Position numbers and translations under genes: made by a program
Assembly: GCA_964446575.1 (NCBI GenBank)
Contig: CAYUOX010000052.1
Location: 180-64,179 of the forward strand
Source of the DNA: an uncultured Anaerolineaceae bacterium
GTDB lineage: Bacteria > Chloroflexota > Anaerolineae > Anaerolineales > DRMV01
DNA length: 64,000 bases
Direction of reading: 5' to 3'
Part shown: one piece after another, positions 1 through 37,926 of the stretch
How positions within the stretch are numbered: the stretch's first letter is position 1
How the letters are laid out: the number at the start of each line of letters is the position of its first letter
The notes under the pieces: generated by a model
Databases searched by the model: none
What the model saw: the letters and a program-made list of their open reading frames with translations, nothing else
What the model was told of the DNA's origin: nothing

Positions 1-70
1 TGGGGGGAACGGGATTTGCGACCCGCGTACGTGCGCCATTCGTCCTGCTGTCCGTGCATGAGGCCTGTTT

Positions 71-3225: not shown

Positions 3226-4389
3226 ATGACCGAAACCTCTGAATTGCAAGCGCTGGTTCAAGAATGGGAGTCCGCCTTAGGGCCCGAAGACCTGGCCAAG
3301 GCCCGCTACCAATTGCGCATGCGAGTGTGGCGGTTTGGAAGCACCCTGCTGCTGGCTGGGCTGCTCGCGCTGCTGTGGCTGCCTACGGGCTGGGCCGTTG
3401 CCCTGCGGGACGCGCTGCGGGCCAACGCCAATGGGTGGCGCACGTGGCTTTACATTCTGCTGCTGGGCGCGATGTCTTCGGCCCTATCCTTGCCTTTGGC
3501 GTGGTGGTTCGAGTTCCGGGTCGAGCAGCATTTGGGCACCTTGCGCCAATCTCTCCGCGGCTGGCTGCGTGATCACCTCAAGCAGGAGGCCCTGGCCGGG
3601 CTGGTGCAAAGCCTGCTGATGACGGGCCTTTACTTCATGTTTCGCCGCTGGCCTGAGCATTGGTTCGTGGGCATCGCCGTGGCTGTGGTGGTCTTCCTGG
3701 TGGTGTATTATCTGCTGCAGCCCGTGTTCTTGCGCTTGCAATACAAAGCCGAGCCGCTGGACGACCCCGATTTGCAGGCGCTACTAAAGGACCTCTTCGA
3801 GCGGGCCGGCGTGCCTTTTGCGGGCCTGGCGGTGCTCAGGGCCAGCGAGAAAACCGCGCGCGGCAACGCCGCGTTGGTACCCAAAGGCGCGGGCACGCAA
3901 GTGGTCGTGTTCGACACCCTGCTGCACGAGTTGAGCCCGCGCGCGTTGGCCGCGGTCGTCGCGCACGAGTTGGGGCACAAAGTGCATCGCGACATGCTGA
4001 AATTGATGCTCGTGCTGGGTGTGAGCCTGCTGGCCGCGCTAAGTCTGGGCTACGGCGTGCTGACCACCGTGGGGTATTGGGATGGCCTTCAGGGGCCCGC
4101 GGACGTGGCGACCTTACCCTTGCTTTGGTTGACTTTGGCTTGGTTGGGCGCGGGCTTGCAGATTTTGCTCAACGCGTATATGCGGCGCATCGAATTCGCC
4201 GCGGATGCGTACGCGCTGACCTTAACCCAAGACCCGGCCGCGTTGGAGGAAGCCTTTCGGGTGTTGGCCCGCCAGAACAAGGCCTTGCCCCAACCGCCCC
4301 TTTGGGTCGAGCGGCTGTTGGACAACCACCCCAGCCTGGCGCGGCGGGTATTGGCGTTGCGTCGAGCCGCGCGGCAAGCCCGCGGCTGA
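3226..4389 (+). CDS. M48-family (Ste24/HtpX-like) membrane zinc metallopeptidase
   Basis: AGGAGG RBS at 3216-3221. 'VVAHELGHKVHRD' HExxH motif, multiple N-terminal TM helices, and a C-terminal 'HPSLARR' motif typical of M48. Confidence 0.85.
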   Translation: MTETSELQALVQEWESALGPEDLAKARYQLRMRVWRFGSTLLLAGLLALLWLPTGWAVALRDALRANANGWRTWLYILLLGAMSSALSLPLAWWFEFRVEQHLGTLRQSLRGWLRDHLKQEALAGLVQSLLMTGLYFMFRRWPEHWFVGIAVAVVVFLVVYYLLQPVFLRLQYKAEPLDDPDLQALLKDLFERAGVPFAGLAVLRASEKTARGNAALVPKGAGTQVVVFDTLLHELSPRALAAVVAHELGHKVHRDMLKLMLVLGVSLLAALSLGYGVLTTVGYWDGLQGPADVATLPLLWLTLAWLGAGLQILLNAYMRRIEFAADAYALTLTQDPAALEEAFRVLARQNKALPQPPLWVERLLDNHPSLARRVLALRRAARQARG

Positions 4390-4488
4390 AGCGGTCGTCC
4401 GTGGCCGCCCTGGCCGAACCATGACGCGCGTCCCAGCCGGGTCGCAGCCGCGCCCCAGCCTGTTGCCAACCGCGGCGTCCACCCTGGA

Positions 4489-4710
4489 GGTGTTCGACAA
4501 TTTCACACGGGGGCACGGAGATCACGGAGGGAAGGAGCGCAGAAAGGGGGGAGGGTATGGAGGGCCGTTGGAAAAGCAAACCGGCGCGAATCTGCCGCGT
4601 TCTCTATTGGCGAGCGCTTCCAGGGAGCGTTTCGCTCCGCGCTGCCGATAGGCCCGGCAGGGTATGGGGCAAAACCACGGCTCACGGCGATACGTCGATT
4701 TTTCAAACCG
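4489..4710 (+). repeat. Dispersed intergenic repeat, copy A (MITE-like, with TIR-like ends)
   Basis: Aligns by eye along its length with 18899-19129 (reverse complement) and 33729-~33920. Conserved blocks are GGTGTTCRANAATTTCAC, CACGGNGANCAC, GGAGGRCCGTTGGRAAAGCAAACC and GGGGCAAAAC. The ends are GGTGTTCGACAATTT and AAATCGACG..TTTTTCAAACCG, an imperfect inverted repeat. Confidence 0.85.
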
Positions 4711-4723
4711 TCTCTGTCCACCC

Positions 4724-4752
4724 TTGACAACCTGGCAAGCCTGTCTTAACAT
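4724..4752 (+). promoter_or_regulatory. Promoter of the MarR gene (TTGACA-17 nt-TAACAT)
   Basis: TTGACA at 4724-4729, a 17-nt spacer, and TAACAT at 4747-4752, 32 nt before the ATG at 4784. Confidence 0.55.
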
Positions 4753-4783: not shown

Positions 4784-5230
4784 ATGGCGTCTGGAGAGCC
4801 TTTGACCGAAACCCTTAGCCGGGTCTTGGGGCGAATCATGCACCTGTGGCTGCACGCGTCCCGCCGGTTCGCGCGTGAGCATGGGCTGTCGGTGGGCCAA
4901 CTCATGGTGTTGCGGCAGTTGCAATTTCGCGGGCCGTGCACCGTCTCAGACATCGCCCAACGGATGGGCGTGACCAATGCCGCGGCCAGCCAGGTCTTGG
5001 ACCGCTTGGTTGACCAAGGGTTGGTGGTGCGTCGCGAAAACCCCGCGGATCGACGCAGCAAGTCGGTGGTCTTGACCCCTTACGGCCGCCACGTGCTGGC
5101 TCAGGCCACCCAGTGGCATCAGGCCTGGTTGCGCGAGTTGCTGGGGCGCTTCTCGCCCGCAGAAGCGCAGGTCTTGCGGCAGGCGTTGGAGATTCTGGAC
5201 GCGCACTTGGCCGCGCCCAGCGACGATTGA
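4784..5230 (+). CDS. MarR-family transcriptional regulator
   Basis: Winged-helix MarR signature: 'LSVGQLMVLRQLQFRGPCTVSDIAQRMGVTNAAASQVLDRLVDQGLVVRRENPADRRSKSVVLTPYG'. Confidence 0.9.
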   Translation: MASGEPLTETLSRVLGRIMHLWLHASRRFAREHGLSVGQLMVLRQLQFRGPCTVSDIAQRMGVTNAAASQVLDRLVDQGLVVRRENPADRRSKSVVLTPYGRHVLAQATQWHQAWLRELLGRFSPAEAQVLRQALEILDAHLAAPSDD

Positions 5231-18707: not shown

Positions 18708-18898
18708 CCGCACGTCGCGCCTCTGGGCCGTGGCCGAATCTGCCCGGCGGCGCTTTGCCGCGCACGAGGTCCGAACCGCGGCCCTGGGGCGTGGTGGGGC
18801 CCTGCCCATCATGCCGCCGAGGCCGGGGTGGGGCCCCCATGTCCGCGCAGGGCGGCGTCTGCTCGCGCGGGCGCGCGACCATGGCGCGCTAACCGCGG

Positions 18899-19129
18899 GG
18901 CTGTTCGAAAAATCGACGAATCGCCCTGAGCCGTGGTTTTGCCCCCTGCCCTCCTGGGCCCATCCGCAGCGCTGAGCGGAATGGCCCTCCGAAATCGCGC
19001 ACACAAAAAGAAAGCGGCTGATTCACGCTGGTTTGCTTTCCCAACGGCCCTCCAGGCCCTGGAGGGCCTCCTTTCTTCTCTTCTTCACCCCGGTGCTCTC
19101 CGTGGCCCCGTGTGAAATTCTTGAACACC
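18899..19129 (-). repeat. Dispersed intergenic repeat, copy B (inverted orientation)
   Basis: Its reverse complement aligns with copy A over the whole length, including both ends (GGTGTTCAAGAATTTCAC ... TCGTCGATTTTTCGAACAGCC). It contains the extra palindrome GGCCCTCCAGGCCCTGGAGGGCC at 19046-19068. Confidence 0.85.
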
Positions 19130-19140
19130 CCCGTTAACCG

Positions 19141-19169
19141 TTGACCCGACGGGCGAACCCGCCTACAAT
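19141..19169 (+). promoter_or_regulatory. Promoter (TTGACC-17 nt-TACAAT) giving a probably leaderless mRNA
   Basis: TTGACC at 19141-19146, a 17-nt spacer, and TACAAT at 19164-19169. The ATG at 19177 lies only 7 nt after the -10 box and has no SD. Confidence 0.55.
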
Positions 19170-19176
19170 TGCTGCC

Positions 19177-21564
19177 ATGGCCGACTTTTTCGCCTGGTAT
19201 GCCCTGATCACGTTGGCCGGCTGGTTGGCGCTGCCGCTGGTGTGGCGCTTGTGGCCTGGCCTCCCTTCGCGGGGGTATCCGTACGCGCGGCCGGTGGGCT
19301 GGCTGCTGTGGGGGTTCGTCTACTGGTGGCTGGGCACCTTGGGTTTGGCGCGGCCCGGCGCAGGCGGCGCGTGGGCCGCGGGAGGACTGCTGTTGGGCTG
19401 CGCGGCCCTCGTGTTGGCACGACCGCGCGTGCGCGACCGTTTGCGCGCCTGGTTGCGGGCGCATTGGGCCTTGGTGGGAACCACCGAGGTGGTCTTCGCG
19501 GTGGCCTTCGCGGGGTGGGCCTTGGTGCGCGCGGCCGCGCCCGATATTGTGGGCACCGAAAAGCCCATGGAGTTGGCCTTCATTCAGGCCCTTTTGCGCA
19601 GCGAGGCCTTTCCGCCGCACGACCCTTGGCTTGCGGGGTACGCGATTTCTTACTATTACTTCGGCTATTTGCTCACCGCTCTGCTGGCGACGCTGGCCGG
19701 CACGCCGGGCCCGGTGGCGTTCAATTTGGCCGTGGCCCTCACCTTTGGCTTGGCCGCCAGCAGTGCCTATGGGTTGGGGTATGACCTGTTGGCTCCCCGC
19801 CTGCGTCCGCGCCCCGCGCGCGGGTGGGCCCTGCTCACGCCGCTCATGGTGCTGGTGGTGAGCAACTGGGAGGGCTTGCTCGAAGTGCTCCATCGTCGCG
19901 GCGTGTTTTGGCGCGGGACCACCTCGTCCTTTTGGGCCTGGCTGGACATTCTCAACCTGAACGAACCGCCGACCGGCACATCGTGGCCCCCACGCTTTTG
20001 GTGGTGGTGGCGGGCCAGCCGGGTGCTGCACGACACCTCCCTGAGCGGCGCGCACCAAGAAGTTATCGACGAATTCCCCTTCTTTTCGTTCCTGTTGGGC
20101 GATCTGCACCCTCATGTGTTGGCCATCCCCTTTGGGATGGTTGCGTTGGCGTTGGCGTTGCACCTCTATCGGCGGGGGACAGGCTTCGCGCGGGGCCGGC
20201 TGGGGTATCCGTGGCCTCATCTGGTGTTTTGGGCCGTGGTGTTGGGGGGGCTGTCCTTTTTGAACACATGGGACTTTCCTCTTTATGTGGCCTTGGCCGC
20301 GGCCGCGTGGGGGCTGCATGTGCGCCACCGCGGTGGTTATTGGCGCGCGGCCGCGCAGGAGGCGGCCCGTTGGGCTGTGACGGTGGGGCTGCTGGGGGTG
20401 GGGCTGTACTTGCCCTTCTACCTGGGCTTTGGCTCGCAAGCGCGCGGCTTTTTGCCCAACTTGCTCAATCCGTCTCGGGGCGCGCATTTGTGGGTGATGT
20501 TTGGCCCTTTGTGGGTGCCGCTGGCGTTGATGTTGGCCTTGGCCGCGCGGCGGGCCTCCTGGGCTGCGTTGGGGCGCGGGTTCGCCGCGGCCGCGGGTGT
20601 GACCGTGGGCCTGGCCGCGCTGGCGTGGCTCATGGCCGGCATCATGGGCCTCTTGCCCGCGGGCGACGCGTATCTCAGCCTGTACGCCGCGGCCGACATG
20701 GCCACCTTGGCCCGCGAGGCCTTGGCCCGGCAGGCGCGCGCGGTGGCCGGGCCGTTGACGTTGCTGCTGTTGGGCGGCTTGGCCGTGGGCCTGCTCCTCG
20801 CGGGTCGTGAGACGCGCGCGCAACGCGGCGGGGCCCGGCCCCAACCGGAGGGTTTCCCCCTGTTGTTGATCGCCTGGGGAGCGCTATTGGTGCAGGTCCC
20901 CAATTTCGTGTATTTGTGGGACCATTTCGGCACCCGCATGAACACGGTGTTCAAGTTTTACTACCAGGCTTGGCAGTTGTGGGCGGTGGCCGCGGCGTAT
21001 GCGTGGGTGTGGTTGGCGCGGCAGCGCTGGGCCTGGGTGCTGACCGGCTTGGCCGTGGCCGCGGGGCTGGTGTATCCGGCGTTGGCTTTGCCCGAGCGCG
21101 CGGCCCACTTTCGGCCGCCCCAGGGGTGGACGTTGGACGGGAGCGCGTGGCTGCAGCGCACCAACCCTGACGATTGGGCCGCGGCACAAGCCTTGGCTCG
21201 TGCGCCTTTGGGCACGTTGGCCGAGGCCGTAGGGGGGAGTTACTCGGAGTACGCGCGGCTGAGCACTTACAGCGGCCAGCCCGCGGTGGTGGGATGGCTG
21301 GGCCACGAGGGGCAGTGGCGGGGAGGTTACGCCGAGGTGGGCACGCGGCCGCAAGACATCGAGCGCCTTTACACCACCCGCAATTGGGAGACCGCCCGCG
21401 CCATTTTGGAGCGCTACGGCATTCGCTATGTGGCTTTGGGCGATCTGGAGCGGCGGACCTACGCGGCGCAGCCCGATTTGTGGGAGCGCCATTTGGTGGT
21501 GTGGTGGCGCCAAGGCACGACCACCATCTATTATTGGGCCCCCGAGGTTGCGCCCACGCGGTGA
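19177..21564 (+). CDS. DUF2298 'YYY' integral membrane protein (Chloroflexi/Archaea family, GT-C-like)
   Basis: 'DPWLAGYAISYYYFGYLL' YYY motif. More than 15 predicted TM helices. Product is 795 aa, with a soluble C-terminal domain. Confidence 0.85.
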   Translation: MADFFAWYALITLAGWLALPLVWRLWPGLPSRGYPYARPVGWLLWGFVYWWLGTLGLARPGAGGAWAAGGLLLGCAALVLARPRVRDRLRAWLRAHWALVGTTEVVFAVAFAGWALVRAAAPDIVGTEKPMELAFIQALLRSEAFPPHDPWLAGYAISYYYFGYLLTALLATLAGTPGPVAFNLAVALTFGLAASSAYGLGYDLLAPRLRPRPARGWALLTPLMVLVVSNWEGLLEVLHRRGVFWRGTTSSFWAWLDILNLNEPPTGTSWPPRFWWWWRASRVLHDTSLSGAHQEVIDEFPFFSFLLGDLHPHVLAIPFGMVALALALHLYRRGTGFARGRLGYPWPHLVFWAVVLGGLSFLNTWDFPLYVALAAAAWGLHVRHRGGYWRAAAQEAARWAVTVGLLGVGLYLPFYLGFGSQARGFLPNLLNPSRGAHLWVMFGPLWVPLALMLALAARRASWAALGRGFAAAAGVTVGLAALAWLMAGIMGLLPAGDAYLSLYAAADMATLAREALARQARAVAGPLTLLLLGGLAVGLLLAGRETRAQRGGARPQPEGFPLLLIAWGALLVQVPNFVYLWDHFGTRMNTVFKFYYQAWQLWAVAAAYAWVWLARQRWAWVLTGLAVAAGLVYPALALPERAAHFRPPQGWTLDGSAWLQRTNPDDWAAAQALARAPLGTLAEAVGGSYSEYARLSTYSGQPAVVGWLGHEGQWRGGYAEVGTRPQDIERLYTTRNWETARAILERYGIRYVALGDLERRTYAAQPDLWERHLVVWWRQGTTTIYYWAPEVAPTR

Positions 21565-31839: not shown

Positions 31840-33177
31840 TCAGGCGGTTTCCAGATAGCGCGCCACCTCCCAGTCGGTCACTTGCATGCGATATTCGGCC
31901 ACCTCGGCCTTCTTGGCCCGCATGAACGCGGCGTACAAACGCTCGCCCAGCGCGGCCTGAAGCACCTCGTCGCGCTCCAATTCGTCCAAGGCCTCTTCCA
32001 GCGAGCCTGGCAGGGATTGCACGCCTTTGGCCCGCCGCTCTTCTTCGCTGAGTTCATACAGGTTGATGTGGTCCATCGCGGGCGGCGGTGTCAACTTCCG
32101 ATCGATGCCGTCCAGGCCCGCAGCCAGCATGGCCGCGAAGGCCAAATACGGGTTCGCGGAGGGATCGGGGAAGCGCAGTTCCATTCGCACGGACTTGGAT
32201 TTGCCCTCTTTGGGCCGCGGAATGCGCACCAAGGCCGAGCGGTTGATTTGGGCCCAGGCGATGTACACCGGCGCTTCGTAGCCGGGCACCAGGCGCTTGT
32301 AGGAGTTCACCGTGGGCGCCACTACCGCGGTCAGCGCACGCGCGTGGGCCAATTGCCCGGCCAAGAACGCGTATGCCAAATCGGAGAGCAAATAGGGGTC
32401 GTTGGGCGCGTAGAACAGATTGTTTCCTTGCGTGTCGAACAAGGATTGGTGGCAGTGCATGCCGGAGCCGTTGATGCCATACACGGGTTTGGGCATGAAC
32501 GACGCGATCAAGCCGTGTTGATGCGCGATGGCCTTGACGGTGTATTTGAGGGTGACCACGTTGTCCGCGGCGACCAGGGCATCGGCAAAGCGAAAGTCGA
32601 TTTCGTGTTGCCCCAGCGCGACTTCGTGATGGCCCATTTCGATGTCCAGGCCCATGCTGGTGAGCGCGTCCATGAGTTGCGTGCGCACGCGCACGGCTTC
32701 GTCGTTGGCCGAAAAGTCGAAATATCCCCCCACATCATGGGGCACGGGCCGCACTGCATCGCCGTTGCGCTTGAACAAGAAAAACTCGGGTTCGGGCCCG
32801 ATGTTGTAGATCCAGCCCCGGGTTTCGCGCAGGCGGGCCAACATGCGCTTGAGATTGCCGCGCGGGTCACCGACAAAAGGTGTGCCGTCGGGCAAGTAGA
32901 CATCACAGAAAATGCGGGCCCGGCGCCGTTCTTCAGGCGTCCAAGGCAGCACCGCATAGGTGTCGATGTCGAGCACCAAACGCATGTCGCTTTCTTGAAT
33001 GCGCGCGAACCCCTCGATGGACGAGCCGTCGAACCACACGCCGTCTTCTAAGGCTTCGGGCAATTTGCTGACCGGAATGTCAACGCTTTTGACCGCGCCG
33101 GTCACATCGGTAAATTGCAGAGAGATGAAGCGAACGCGGTCTTCACGCACGCGGGTCATCAGTTCGTCGCGGGTCAT
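31840..33177 (-). CDS. glnA: Glutamine synthetase, type I
   Basis: 'VRFISLQFTDVTGAVKSVDIP', 'FDGSSIEGF' and 'GSGMHCHQSLF' motifs. GGAGGTG RBS before the ATG at 33177. The upstream 67 codons of the track ORF were rejected. Confidence 0.95.
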   Translation of the reverse strand: MTRDELMTRVREDRVRFISLQFTDVTGAVKSVDIPVSKLPEALEDGVWFDGSSIEGFARIQESDMRLVLDIDTYAVLPWTPEERRRARIFCDVYLPDGTPFVGDPRGNLKRMLARLRETRGWIYNIGPEPEFFLFKRNGDAVRPVPHDVGGYFDFSANDEAVRVRTQLMDALTSMGLDIEMGHHEVALGQHEIDFRFADALVAADNVVTLKYTVKAIAHQHGLIASFMPKPVYGINGSGMHCHQSLFDTQGNNLFYAPNDPYLLSDLAYAFLAGQLAHARALTAVVAPTVNSYKRLVPGYEAPVYIAWAQINRSALVRIPRPKEGKSKSVRMELRFPDPSANPYLAFAAMLAAGLDGIDRKLTPPPAMDHINLYELSEEERRAKGVQSLPGSLEEALDELERDEVLQAALGERLYAAFMRAKKAEVAEYRMQVTDWEVARYLETA

Positions 33178-33681
33178 AAGCACCTCCAAAAAAGGAATGA
33201 GATAGCCTCTTGTGGCCGGGCCTGGCCGGAAGACCACGGTTTCTCGAGCCCAGGGCGGGTTGGCTCGAGGCGCCTGTTTAAAGCAAACAGGCACGCCGGG
33301 CGTGCCTGCGGGTTTGCGTTCCCATTGTAAACGGCCGCCCCTTCCAAAGCGCGCGACCAGGGCCATGCCCTGGGCCACTGGGCCGGCCTTGGCCCACCCG
33401 TCGCCGGATGGTTTTCAGCACGGCCCTTTGCCGGAAGGGGAAGAGCGAGGCCCGTGGCCAGGCCTCGGAGGCATCCGCTGAACTGTCCGATTTTCCCCGG
33501 CGGTGGAGCCGGTGCCACGTCCAGGGGATACACCCTGGCCCATCGCACCGACCGCTCGGGTTAGCACTCCCCTCGCGGGGAGGAACCTCCACCTCGTAGC
33601 CTCACGGTGCTGCAAAGAGATACCCGTGAGGCCCAGCCGCTACTCTTCCTATGCGGTTGTTGTGGGCCTGGAGCCCAATTG
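33178..33681 (-). ncRNA. Long, highly structured 5' leader or independent ncRNA upstream of glnA (unclassified)
   Basis: It lies downstream of a consensus promoter. Perfect stems include 33600-33631, 33567-33582 (GNRA-type loop GCGA), 33357-33373 and 33243-33269. An intrinsic terminator lies at 33276-33308. No convincing ORF is present. Confidence 0.4.
33276..33308 (-). terminator. Intrinsic terminator inside the glnA upstream region
   Basis: The minus strand reads CAGGCACG-CCCGG-CGTGCCTG followed by TTTGCTTTAAA, about 100 nt upstream of the glnA ATG. Confidence 0.6.
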
Positions 33682-33687
33682 CAGGCC

Positions 33688-33716
33688 ATTCTACGCGCAC
33701 TTGGGCGTCCTGTCAA
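33688..33716 (-). promoter_or_regulatory. Near-consensus promoter (TTGACA-17 nt-TAGAAT) reading toward glnA
   Basis: Minus strand has TTGACA (33716..33711), a 17-nt spacer, and TAGAAT (33693..33688). Confidence 0.6.
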
Positions 33717-33728
33717 GGGCGCGAGCGG

Positions 33729-33920
33729 GGTGTTCGAAAATTTCACCCGGGGACACGGTGAGCACGGCGGGAGGGAGTACAGAAAGGGGATTTTAGGGCA
33801 TGGAGGACCGTTGGAAAAGCAAACCGGCGTGAATTTGCCCCTTTCGCGATTTGCGCGCGATTCTGGGGGCGTTCTGCTCCGCGCTGCGGATGAGCCCGGG
33901 AGGGCATGGGGCAAAACATG
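33729..33920 (+). repeat. Dispersed intergenic repeat, copy C (3'-truncated or diverged)
   Basis: Aligns with copy A from GGTGTTCGAAAATTTCAC through GGGGCAAAAC. Similarity is lost after ~33918, near the 3' end of the GT39-like gene. Confidence 0.8.
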
Positions 33921-33955
33921 GAGAGCGCGAAGGTGTCCGGCGTCCCTCGCGCCCG

Positions 33956-35398
33956 TTAGTAGTCGAAATGGGCTTCATGGCCATGTGGCCCCAGCAGCAC
34001 CCTCCAGCGGGCGCGCTGGGCCCAGAGGTCTGCCCCCCAAGCGGCCAGCAGCAGGGCTTGGGCGGCGCGTCCGGCCCAACGCCGCCATGCGCCGCCGGGC
34101 GCGGCTTCGGCCGCGCGCCATTGCTCGCGATAGGCCCAAGTCCAGGCTGCGGCCGAGGCGAGGAAAGGCACCAGGGCCAAGTGCATGCGCGGGTCGGCCA
34201 AAATGAGCGCGTGGGGCGCGGTGTAGGCGAGGGCGAAGGCCAGGGCCCAAGCCCAGCCGGGGCCACGGCGTCCGTGGGCCCAAGTGCGTATCGCCATCAT
34301 CATGAGCAGGGCGAAAGGACTCAGCCACACTACCAGGACCCCGATAAGCACCGCGCGCGGCCAGGCTCCCAGTACGCCGTTGCTGTATAAATACATGAGC
34401 ACCCGCTTTTCCAGACCATAGAACGCGGTCAGGCGATGGAGCGTTCGGCGCAGAAATTCGCCCACGCCCTCTTGGCGGATGAACGCCCACGCGCGCGCCC
34501 GCGCCACTGCGTCTCGTTCGGCATCGTCCACGATGTACAGCAACTCCTGCGCCGCGGGCGGGTAGAACGTGCCGTCGCCGTCGGGATGCGCGCCGATGTA
34601 CAGATTGTAGCCGCCCGAGGTCTCGAGCCAGACCCAGCGGCCATGCAAGCGGGCGTTGCGCACCAGCCAAGGGCCACAAAGGGCGACCAGCACGGCCAGC
34701 GCGGTGACCACGCTGCGCGCGCGGGCCCTCTTGGCCGTCCACGCGCGCGCGAGCACCAGCGGGACGAACACCGCGGCCACCGAGCGGGTCAGCATGGCCA
34801 GCCCCAACACCCCGGCCGTGGCCGCGGCCCAGCGCGGCGCGGCCGATGCCCGCGGCCCGCGAACCAACAGCACCAGCAACCCCAGGCTCAACGGCAAGAA
34901 CAAGTTCTCGGTTGCCAAGGCCAGTGGCAACAACACCAGCATAGGATACGCACTGACCGCGCCCGCGGCCATATCTGCCGCGCGCGGCCGCGCGGGCATT
35001 AGCGCGCGAGCCAATGCCCAAGTCAGCGGGGCCACCAGCGCGCCCAGCACGGCCTGTGCCAGCCGCGCCGCAAACCAGCGATGCTCCAAGCCGGCCACGC
35101 GATACCACACGGCCAAAAACGCGGGGTACAAGGGGCCGCGAAACGAGGTCGGCAGCCCGCGCGGATCATAGTCAGGATGCGTCGTCGGATCGAAATCAAT
35201 GTACCGTTGAATGAGGGCCACATCCTCCAGCGCGTACCAGCGAAAGCCTTGCCCCGCGGCCAGGCTACGGGCCAGCATGTCATATTGGAACATGTCGTCC
35301 AAACCAATGCCCAGCCCGCGGCCGGCCAGCACCGCGGCCAAGCGTAGCACCAACGCCACCGCAAACCACCACCAGGCGCGACGCGCGGCGGCCCTCAT
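33956..35398 (-). CDS. GT-C fold membrane glycosyltransferase (GT39/PMT_2, ArnT-like)
   Basis: 480 aa and polytopic. The N-terminal loop 'GIGLDDMFQYDMLARSLAAGQGF' and 'PLYPAFLA' are typical of dolichyl-/undecaprenyl-phosphate-sugar-dependent transferases. Confidence 0.7.
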   Translation of the reverse strand: MRAAARRAWWWFAVALVLRLAAVLAGRGLGIGLDDMFQYDMLARSLAAGQGFRWYALEDVALIQRYIDFDPTTHPDYDPRGLPTSFRGPLYPAFLAVWYRVAGLEHRWFAARLAQAVLGALVAPLTWALARALMPARPRAADMAAGAVSAYPMLVLLPLALATENLFLPLSLGLLVLLVRGPRASAAPRWAAATAGVLGLAMLTRSVAAVFVPLVLARAWTAKRARARSVVTALAVLVALCGPWLVRNARLHGRWVWLETSGGYNLYIGAHPDGDGTFYPPAAQELLYIVDDAERDAVARARAWAFIRQEGVGEFLRRTLHRLTAFYGLEKRVLMYLYSNGVLGAWPRAVLIGVLVVWLSPFALLMMMAIRTWAHGRRGPGWAWALAFALAYTAPHALILADPRMHLALVPFLASAAAWTWAYREQWRAAEAAPGGAWRRWAGRAAQALLLAAWGADLWAQRARWRVLLGPHGHEAHFDY

Positions 35399-36222: not shown

Positions 36223-37926
36223 TTAGGGCTCGGCCCGAAAGCGTCGCAGCACAATGCCCCAGTCTTCGGTTTCGTTGTAATAGCGGGCCACGTCTTCCAA
36301 GTAGGGCGTCAAATCTTGATAAGGCGGTCGATCATACAGCGCGCGGCCCAACAAGGCATAGTCCAGCCCAATGCGGCGTAAATAGTCGACACGACGGCCT
36401 TGCTGCATGGCGTGCAAATACGCGTAACTGCTGATCAAGCCATCGAGGTTCACCACAGTGCGATCACGCACAAAATAGCCCAAACTTCCGGCTCCGGTGG
36501 CGCCGACGAGGGCGCCGGGTTCGGTATGCGCTTCGACCCAGCGCGCGTAGTCGATGTACATGTGCACACCCGGACGGTCGTGGGCATATGTGCGCACGAT
36601 GCGCCGCGTGAGCGGGACGCCGCCTACCAGCAGCAAGCCCGCGGCCAGCGCGGGCCAAGCCCAACGGGGCCAGGGCCGCGAGCGCACTTTTGCCGGCAGA
36701 TTTTCCCATATCACCTGCGCGGCCAAGGCCATGAGAATGTAGACCAGCAGGTGTTGACTCACCCAATACCAATGGCGCACGCCCATGTGCCGGGCGATGG
36801 TGTAATAGCCCGCGTGGGCGATCGCCCCTACTAACCAAGGCAGCACCCAAGCGCGTTGGACCACCGGCCACCACGCGCGGCGCGTGAACCAGAGCATGAG
36901 ACCGACGATGGTCAGCCCGACGGCCGCCAAGGGTAAACCCTCTCGCCAGGTTTGCAATTCGGGTAGGCCCCAGGCCAAAAAGGTGGCTTCGTGGCGGTGG
37001 TAGAAGTCCCACAGGGGGGTGAGCAAGGGCGACCACGGGCGACCTGGCCGCGGGTCCAAATTGGCCTTGAGCAGGGCAATGGGCCAGGGGTCGGCGCTGG
37101 GGGCGCCATAGGGTGTGCCCTGGCCAAAGGTGCCCCACCAAGCCTTGACCTGACCGCTGACGGGCACGATGCCGCCCACGTAAGCCCAACTCCACAGCAA
37201 GTAGCCGCCCACCAAAACCAGGGGCGGGCCTGCCCAGGCCAGCAGCCAACGCAGGGCCGGCTGCCAGGCGCGGGTGCGCAGCCACGGCCACCACACGCGA
37301 TGTTGTTGGACCAGCATGGCCAACACGACGGCCATGGCCACGAAGATATTGTCCAGCCGCGCCAAAAGGGCCAGGGCCAGGCTCAGGCCCCAGGCGACCC
37401 AAGCGCGGTGCTCATTGCGTGTAGCCAACAAACGAAGGCTGGCCAGCCACAGCCCGGCCAAAGTCAGGGCGTTGAGCGCGCTCTCGATGCTGCCTACCGA
37501 ATACGCGAACACCACGCGCGGGCTGAACACCCACGCCACGGCCAGGGCCCACGCCACACCGCGGGCCATCACGCGACGCGCGGCCCGGTAGAGCACAAGG
37601 CCCGTGAGGCCGTGCAGCAGGCCGGTGAGCAACACCACGCCCCGCAGCGGCAGAATGAGATCGCCGCCGCGGCTCAACAAGGCGTACACTCCCACCAGCA
37701 ACAGCATCCACAGCGGGTGGAACCCATTGGTCGGCCCAAAGCCGTCGAAGGTGACCCCGCGACCCAACACGATATTGCGGGCTACCGTGAAATAGTAAAA
37801 CGCATCGTCGATGTGGAACCAGTTGAGCAGCGAATACTCCGACGCGGTGGCCACATAGCCGTGCACAGCCACGACCCAGGCCAGCAGCGCGGCCTCTTCC
37901 CACGACAAACGCAAACGACGCAACAT
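36223..37926 (-). CDS. Large polytopic membrane protein, GT-C glycosyltransferase-like
   Basis: 567 aa with more than 12 TM helices. The first-loop motif is 'HIDDAFYYFTVARNIVLGRGVTFDG...TNGFHPLW'. Confidence 0.6.
   Translation of the reverse strand: MLRRLRLSWEEAALLAWVVAVHGYVATASEYSLLNWFHIDDAFYYFTVARNIVLGRGVTFDGFGPTNGFHPLWMLLLVGVYALLSRGGDLILPLRGVVLLTGLLHGLTGLVLYRAARRVMARGVAWALAVAWVFSPRVVFAYSVGSIESALNALTLAGLWLASLRLLATRNEHRAWVAWGLSLALALLARLDNIFVAMAVVLAMLVQQHRVWWPWLRTRAWQPALRWLLAWAGPPLVLVGGYLLWSWAYVGGIVPVSGQVKAWWGTFGQGTPYGAPSADPWPIALLKANLDPRPGRPWSPLLTPLWDFYHRHEATFLAWGLPELQTWREGLPLAAVGLTIVGLMLWFTRRAWWPVVQRAWVLPWLVGAIAHAGYYTIARHMGVRHWYWVSQHLLVYILMALAAQVIWENLPAKVRSRPWPRWAWPALAAGLLLVGGVPLTRRIVRTYAHDRPGVHMYIDYARWVEAHTEPGALVGATGAGSLGYFVRDRTVVNLDGLISSYAYLHAMQQGRRVDYLRRIGLDYALLGRALYDRPPYQDLTPYLEDVARYYNETEDWGIVLRRFRAEP

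Follow-up and report, generated by a model that had tools for sequence, protein, structure and literature searches.

A new MITE family from an uncultured Anaerolineaceae bacterium, three copies of which are inserted next to the -35 box of promoter-like sites

Several bacterial insertion sequences are directed to defined non-coding sites: IS1397, ISKpn1 and IS621 insert into REP palindromes, IS1 and IS5 upstream of bgl, flhDC and glpFK at destabilised DNA, and IS186 in the lon promoter. In eukaryotes, Ty3 is targeted to Pol III start sites, Tf1 to Pol II promoters and the rice element mPing to DNA upstream of genes. We know of no site-directed insertion sequence that puts its target-site duplication flush with the -35 box of unrelated promoters, and our literature search turned up no mobile element with a duplication flush against -35 boxes.

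Bacterial MITEs that affect transcription (e.g. Correia/CREE in Neisseria, ERIC, RUP, MITEAba12 and Chunjie) are small, non-coding and multi-copy, carry terminal inverted repeats (TIRs) and duplications, and are mostly intergenic, often near genes (PMC10969869). Correia elements contain sigma-70-like promoter parts of their own and target TA (PMC10969869). The target preferences compiled in a 2024 review of MITEs in prokaryotes are intergenic, AT-rich and clustered, and none involves a duplication that abuts a -35 box (PMC10969869). For the IS6/IS26 family the TIR consensus is GGTTCTGTTGCAAA, in which G1, G2, G7 (and G10) are conserved, and the duplications are 8 bp long (PMC6807381; PMC7986276). 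This family is known for altering the expression of adjacent genes, and no promoter-edge target preference is described for it in PMC7986276 or PMC6807381.

Here we describe a repeat of about 230 bp that is found in three copies (A, B and C) in the window, i.e. the whole stretch of 64,000 nucleotides analysed here, and in a fourth copy (D) elsewhere in the same metagenome/organism. The repeat is a non-autonomous, MITE-like DNA transposon and represents a new MITE family; its short length, its TIRs, its 8-9-bp duplications and its absence of coding capacity together define a MITE. The copies and their flanking duplications are as follows (positions are those of the window, except for copy D).

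4477 to 4485: left duplication of copy A, GTCCACCCT
4486 to 4715, plus strand: copy A of the MITE, complete at 230 bp; left terminus GGAGGTGTTCGACAATTT, right terminus ...GATTTTTCAAACCGTCTCT, degenerate
4716 to 4724: right duplication of copy A, GTCCACCCT; the final T doubles as the first base of the -35 box TTGACA
18888 to 18895: distal duplication of copy B, GCTAACCG
18896 to 19132, minus strand: copy B of the MITE, complete at 237 bp and oriented opposite to A and C; termini CGGGGCTGTTCGAAAAATC (from 18896) and GGGGGTGTTCAAGAATTT (from 19132 downwards)
19133 to 19140: promoter-side duplication of copy B, GTTAACCG; directly abuts TTGACC
33717 to 33725: presumed duplication of copy C, GGGCGCGAG (minus strand: CTCGCGCCC); abuts the -35 box (TGTCAA, 33711-33716)
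33726 to 33920, plus strand: copy C of the MITE, 195 bp, with left terminus CGGGGTGTTCGAAAATTT and lacking about 40 nt at the right
33946 to 33954: CTCGCGCCC, found nowhere else in the window; the reverse complement of the 9-mer beside the left end of copy C
L007, 562 to 730: copy D; left end deleted, right end intact

The four copies span 172-237 bp, share 76-83% pairwise identity and are 61% GC overall, in a window whose G+C content is 62-72% over most of its length. The repeat thus falls within the size class of MITEs (<500 bp, multi-copy, dispersed). Its TIRs are imperfect, with the pattern GGGGnTGTTCGAAAAWT; this pattern is present at all four recognisable ends (GGAGGTGTTCGACAATTT at the left end of A, GGGGGTGTTCAAGAATTT and GGGGCTGTTCGAAAAATC at the two ends of B, and CGGGGTGTTCGAAAATTT in C) and nowhere else in the 64 kb, where 0.26 occurrences are expected by chance. 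The suspected truncation of copy C is confirmed, with similarity stopping after GGGGCAAAAC (33917). The element shares its size class, TIRs, duplications and intergenic location with the bacterial MITEs mentioned above; unlike those, it is not AT-rich and forms no long hairpin, and unlike Correia elements it contains no promoter parts of its own.

We found no consistent open reading frame with a start codon in the element, and a query of concatenated six-frame peptides against 5.8 billion proteins revealed neither a coding signal nor extra copies hidden in mis-called ORFs. The element was also considered as a structured RNA gene or hairpin and rejected as such: covariation analysis of either strand gave 0-1 covarying pairs and a positive covariation term, folding was no more stable than that of shuffled sequence (z = 0.48), and there was no match to any Rfam family.

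Neither an HMM built from the copies nor a search for solo termini found anything further within the window, and 9.7 kb past the window end on a longer contig contained no copy. DNA-pattern scans gave two matches among genome contigs, both attributed to chance by nhmmer, and two chance matches only among viral contigs; among metagenome contigs they led back to the same JGI metagenome alone and added a single new, truncated copy, D. No transposase or autonomous partner was found among the flanking genes and the ORFs that were scanned against Pfam (about 77 kb of the organism was reached). The element ends are most like those of the IS6/IS26 type, but since no transposase partner was found, this family assignment is only a lead. 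The ends GGGGCTGTTCGAAA, GGGGGTGTTCAAGA and GGAGGTGTTCGACA agree with the IS6/IS26 consensus at 8-10 of 14 positions, with a GG start, G at position 7 and TGTT at positions 6-9, and without G10; Harmer and Hall pointed out that the GG...G7 arrangement is found in other IS families too (PMC6807381). The IS6-type MITEs listed in ISfinder (MITEBth2 and MITEHarch3, 227 and 336 bp) are of similar size (PMC7986276, PMC6807381).

The duplications were scored on copies A and B, C and D each being truncated at one end. The flanking direct repeats match at nine of nine positions in A (or 8 bp with a chance extra base) and at seven of eight in B (GYTAACCG), as compared with 8 bp in the IS6 family. Among 200,000 random pseudo-insertions given the same ±2-nt slack, an exact 9-mer in register as in A was obtained with P = 2.4e-4, and a match of at least 7/8 as in B with P = 9e-3. 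The pre-insertion sequences predicted from the duplications are ...CGCGGCGTCCACCCTTGACAACC... and ...GGCGCGYTAACCGTTGACCCG.... For copy C, the 9-mer at 33717-33725 is presumed to be the duplication seen from one side, its partner having been lost together with the right end.

Each of the three copies in the window adjoins a promoter-like site. These sites and the genes that they precede are as follows.

4724 to 4752, plus strand: MarR promoter, TTGACA-17-TAACAT (-10 box at 4747-4752), 10/12 consensus positions
4784 to 5230: MarR gene, ATG at 4784
19141 to 19169, plus strand: promoter of the DUF2298 gene, TTGACC-17-TACAAT (-10 box at 19164-19169), 10/12
33177 to 31840: glnA, ATG at 33177
33280 to 33681, minus strand: structured glnA leader RNA, with a terminator-like hairpin (33309-33287) at its end
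33688 to 33716, minus strand: promoter of the glnA leader RNA, TTGACA (33716..33711)-17-TAGAAT (33693..33688), 11/12

The earlier note on this DNA had reported that all three copies end 11-13 nt from a near-consensus -35 box, and every coordinate and distance checks out: in A, ...TTTTTCAAACC ends at 4710, 13 nt before TTGACA at 4724-4729; in B, ...GAACACC ends at 19129, 11 nt before TTGACC at 19141-19146; in C, GGTGTTC starts at 33729, 12 nt from the minus-strand TTGACA. The RNA upstream of glnA that the same note proposed is real and conserved, but it is not the glnA/glutamine riboswitch of Rfam. The DUF2298 product is a membrane protein, and its transcript would be leaderless, as the ATG (19177) lies 7 nt past the -10 box. 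The GT39-like neighbour of copy C, on the other hand, was misplaced: the adjacent gene (33956..35398, minus strand) has no significant Pfam match, and the PMT_2 (GT39-like) match belongs to 36223..37926.

Sites of this quality are rare in the window. A scan of both strands for TTGACA-16..18-TATAAT with a threshold of 10/12 found nine promoter-like sites (as compared with about one in dinucleotide-shuffled sequences), and three of the nine adjoin the three copies; TTGAC itself occurs 87 times in the window.

The 11-13-nt gap turns out to consist of the last 5-7 nt of the element and the 8-9-bp duplication. The duplication ends at the -35 box itself, with its promoter-side limit at 4724 in A (where it includes the first T of TTGACA), 19140 in B and 33717 in C, i.e. 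within ±1 nt of the first T of TTGAC in all three copies. As the -35 and -10 boxes lie beyond the duplication, both belong to the target DNA and not to the element. The end of the element that faces the promoter is the right one in A and the left one in B and C, and the stretch of 8-13 nt that separates the terminal repeat from the -35 box is unrelated among the copies. TTGAC is absent from the non-promoter flanks of A, B and D, and there is no promoter near the intact right end of D.

In related genomes the same promoters, or equivalent ones, occur without the element, indicating that the element is a later arrival in this lineage. Two relatives (L021 and L010, with GlnA 89% and 84% identical, respectively) have the same leader RNA and, at the aligned position, TTGACA-17-TAGAAT and TTGACA-17-TATAAT, but no element; their upstream DNA at that position is unrelated. 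Likewise, the MarR promoter in L016/L018 (where the neighbouring oxidoreductase is 83% identical) reads TTGACA-17-TACCAT and has no element beside it. An nhmmer search over the relatives' loci found the element in none of them. An exact empty site was not found among these relatives; L010, L021 and L016/L018 show the promoter without the element only. Four others were uninformative, two having glnA without the leader (L009 and L020), one being cut inside MarR (L015) and one having a different synteny (L019).

The earlier note had offered three ideas for this geometry: outward-facing promoters carried by the element, an A/T-rich TIR acting as an UP element or regulator site, and targeting of promoter-proximal DNA. 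Targeting is the best supported of the three, with the duplication within ±1 nt of the -35 box in three out of three insertions and with either element end facing the promoter. We prefer to explain the insertions by target-site selection for the upstream edge of the -35 box, a reading that, with three informative insertions, we regard as evenly poised between right and wrong. The non-autonomous element would presumably be moved by a DDE transposase encoded elsewhere in the genome, and would insert, in either orientation, into the 8-9 bp directly upstream of the -35 box of pre-existing strong sigma-70-type promoters. The machinery might read a CC(C/G)TTGAC-like sequence, or DNA at the promoter's upstream edge that is bent or bound by sigma/RNA polymerase; the pattern could then be sharpened as insertions into genes are lost. 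After insertion, the element terminus would replace the native DNA upstream of about -37, placing the T/A-rich (A)TTTTTCGAAC at about -53 to -63.

Recognition of a one-sided motif without a fixed orientation of the element counts against targeting; such recognition is unusual for simple DDE transposases. Two specific forms of target recognition were tried and dropped. A palindromic target, GTYMA-N3-TTGAC, agrees with A and B only, leaving C out, and its centre does not coincide with that of the duplication, and mimicry of the TIR by the flank of the -35 box amounts to matches at 5-6 of 10-15 positions.

Active targeting has to be weighed first against selection after the event. The copies may have inserted nearly at random between genes, and those at promoter edges may have been retained, either because no other spot spares both the downstream promoter and the upstream gene's 3' end or terminator, or under positive selection; in the latter case the terminus could contribute, at about -57, either an A/T tract of UP type or a site where a protein binds, or the element could insulate the promoter from read-through. 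We consider retention the main rival reading, and somewhat unlikely. Each of the three copies does have the 3' end of a co-directional upstream gene on one side and the next promoter on the other, and at 76-83% identity the copies are old, so that selection has had time to filter them. For copy C, the ancestral spacer seems to have consisted of a stop codon, a 9-bp hairpin and then the -35 box, perhaps about 28 nt in all; being mostly hairpin, it offered almost nowhere else harmless to land. The T/A tract, whose position at about -53 to -63 does not vary among the three copies, would suit retention, as would a strong 10-bp hairpin with a T-rich tract in copy B (19046-19078), which is oriented as the upstream gene; this hairpin, however, is absent from A and C, and the T/A tract is displaced upstream by 6-9 nt relative to the canonical UP element. 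The spacers of A and B speak against retention. Upstream of the insertion they have about 88 and 180 nt of free spacer, respectively (the stop codons are at 4389 and 18707), and uniform insertion would place both copies within ±1 nt of the promoter edge with a probability of only about 6e-4 (3/88 × 3/180), so that purifying selection alone does not explain A and B; it predicts spread distances rather than single-nucleotide precision.

The A/T tract bears on the UP-element idea in its own right. A classical UP element is an A/T tract at -40 to -60 that is bound by the alpha-CTD. The three promoters next to the copies are similar to such promoters in having an A/T-rich run at a fixed distance upstream of the -35 box, but the run is at about -53 to -63 and overlaps the classical zone only partly, at the distal subsite, while -37 to -52 is occupied by the GC-rich duplication and the CCCC terminus. 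An UP-like role, and with it an effect on transcription, is therefore possible but unsupported.

Another explanation is that the element targets GC-rich hairpins (terminators or REP-like palindromes), as do some IS elements and group IIC introns, and that adjacency to the -35 box is a by-product of compact spacers of the stop-hairpin-promoter type. In copy C, the 9-mer beside the left end has its only reverse complement in the window at 33946-33954, right after the upstream stop codon (33956-33958), and this is probably the other arm of the ancestral hairpin, so that without the element a perfect 9-bp hairpin flush with the -35 box is predicted. In addition, the duplication of copy B contains the end of a 6-bp GCGCGC hairpin (about 18870-18888), and the element-free relative L021 has a 12-nt inverted repeat that ends 4 nt before its -35 box. 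But the hairpin of copy B is weak and has no T-tract, for copy A there is no convincing one in or around the duplication, and no sequence is common to the three hairpins. Hairpins thus fit two of the three copies, whereas the -35 edge fits all three, and we consider hairpin targeting quite unlikely.

The idea that the element carries outward-facing promoters did not hold up, and an imported promoter or -35 box is very improbable. IS6-family TIRs do hold a bidirectional -35-like sequence, TTGCAA, and often form hybrid promoters with a resident -10 box (PMC7986276, PMC6807381). In our copies both hexamers lie outside the duplication and hence outside the element, so the mechanism of IS6-style hybrid promoters does not apply; the TIR motif TTCGAA matches TTGACA at only three of six positions and has no -10 box at 16-18 nt. 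The sequence from the terminus to the -35 box differs between copies, the other flanks of A, B and D have no TTGAC, and relatives carry the same promoters without the element. The earlier note had seen the promoters of B and C as similar at about two-thirds of their positions; the figure is correct (19 of 29), but the matches are mostly those of the consensus hexamers (9 of 17 in the spacer and about 4 of 11 in the gap), so the two promoters are not convincingly homologous, and we rejected them as homologous parts of the repeat. Coincidence is the least probable explanation of all: the sample is small and the intergenic regions of a compact genome always contain promoters, but three of the nine strong promoter-like sites are occupied, each at ±1 nt, and by our estimate a random intergenic insertion would find about 27 such positions (±1 nt at each of nine sites) among some 6.5 kb of non-coding sequence, which gives about 0.4% for a single insertion and about 7e-8 for all three.

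Target-site selection at the -35 edge would be, possibly, a new target preference, proposed here from three insertions. Like the site-directed insertion sequences, the element would prefer a recurrent non-coding feature, which for some of those is also upstream of a promoter; unlike the element, they recognise specific palindromes, single loci or broad zones. Like Ty3, Tf1 and mPing, it would settle directly in front of transcription units, leave coding sequences intact and possibly rewire regulation; unlike here, those elements use other enzymes and tethering factors, and no evolutionary relationship exists. More broadly, the copies may belong to a DDE-type transposon family that selects the upstream edge of sigma-70 -35 hexamers, a prokaryotic counterpart of Ty3/Tf1/mPing that would replace the upstream DNA of strong promoters, where UP elements and activators act, with its A/T-tract terminus and so rewire many promoters together; we put this wider claim forward tentatively.

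If the geometry holds genome-wide, the element would be the first known to us among bacterial mobile elements to sit flush with -35 boxes. It would then be a natural system in which to study promoter sensing by a transposase, and would offer a mechanism by which the upstream promoter regions of many genes change in concert, possibly a tool for promoter-proximal insertion, and a practical means of marking active promoters in uncultured Chloroflexota. Should the geometry fail, the copies would represent a new, ordinary MITE family in an Anaerolineae MAG that came to lie in promoter-containing spacers by chance.

As for the host, the best GlnA homologues that carry names belong to Anaerolineae or Anaerolineales MAGs. 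The DNA of the window is also present at 99.8% identity in ENA ERZ27262694 (contig k141_88058, 82.7 kb), JGI 3300028908 and Logan SRR8542060. Assemblies of the latter two break inside the copies (B is cut at the end of L006 and A at the start of L003), as is expected of a multi-copy repeat.

Upstream of glnA lies a large structured leader RNA, which is kept in three Anaerolineae contigs (the window and two relatives' contigs, L021 and L010), with 16 of 116 predicted pairs covarying.
33280-33681, minus strand: structured leader RNA upstream of glnA (equivalents L021:262-672 and L010:575-985)

The 3' end of this leader is a hairpin of almost perfect conservation followed by a U-rich tract (33309-33287). 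In two other relatives' contigs (L009 and L020) glnA is 90-91% identical, yet the leader RNA is absent. The leader is not the known glutamine (glnA) riboswitch. Its only Rfam signal is a sub-threshold match to the glmS ribozyme (22.4 bits, where the gathering score is 37; E = 0.0045 with 701 nt searched). RNAalifold independently predicts P1, P2 (GGAGGU:GCCUCC) and the 3' domain, as in glmS, and also a long-range closing helix that glmS lacks. When the relatives' leaders are compared with glmS, the P4-like hairpin alone scores (13.6-14.8 bits).

About 25-30 nt upstream of the -35 box of the glnA-leader promoter in L010 there is a ~112-nt unit (L010:368-479) with inverted ends of 15 nt (TCAAAAGCGGGTGGG and CCCACCATCTTTTGA). 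It is unrelated to the MITE-like repeat (copies A, B and C in the window; copy D, left-truncated, in contig L007) and may be another small mobile repeat close to this promoter.

Three further features concern the MITE-like repeat:
33704-33725 and 33939-33954: flanking regions of copy C, with GGCGTCC common to both in direct orientation
33790-33817, minus strand, in copy C, and ~565-592 of L007 in copy D: internal promoter-like site
19046-19078: terminator-like site in copy B, a 10-bp GC hairpin GGCCCTCCAGGCCCTGGAGGGCC followed by TCCTTTCTTC

The two flanks of copy C also share an inverted 9-mer (GGGCGCGAG and CTCGCGCCC; the window has CTCGCGCCC only once). Together with the direct GGCGTCC, this shared 9-mer suggests that the ancestral spacer had the order stop-hairpin-promoter, and that a later deletion of ~50 nt took away the right end of copy C and one copy of the duplication. 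The gene next to copy C (33956-35398), described as GT39-like in the earlier note, matches no Pfam family significantly; it is another gene, at 36223-37926, that gives the PMT_2 (GT39-type) match.

The internal promoter-like site reads TTTCCA-16-TAAAAT in copy C (9/12) and has TAACAT as its -10 in copy D, and this -10 is missing from copies A and B. The site points to the left end of the element, which in copy C means towards the glnA-leader promoter. The hairpin of copy B arises from a small internal duplication specific to that copy (A, C and D lack it); it has the same direction as the upstream STAND-NTPase gene and is the highest-ranked terminator-like match in the first 20 kb of the window. 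The DUF2298 gene start (19164-19179) consists of TACAAT, 7 nt and ATG, with no Shine-Dalgarno sequence, and the gene appears to be leaderless.

The first 2000 nt of the window have a G+C content of only 53%, compared with 62-72% elsewhere. An ORF in this stretch (494-1141; GC3 0.46) has no Pfam match. Near 1369-1408, an indel of ~38 bp distinguishes the window from a JGI contig (L008).
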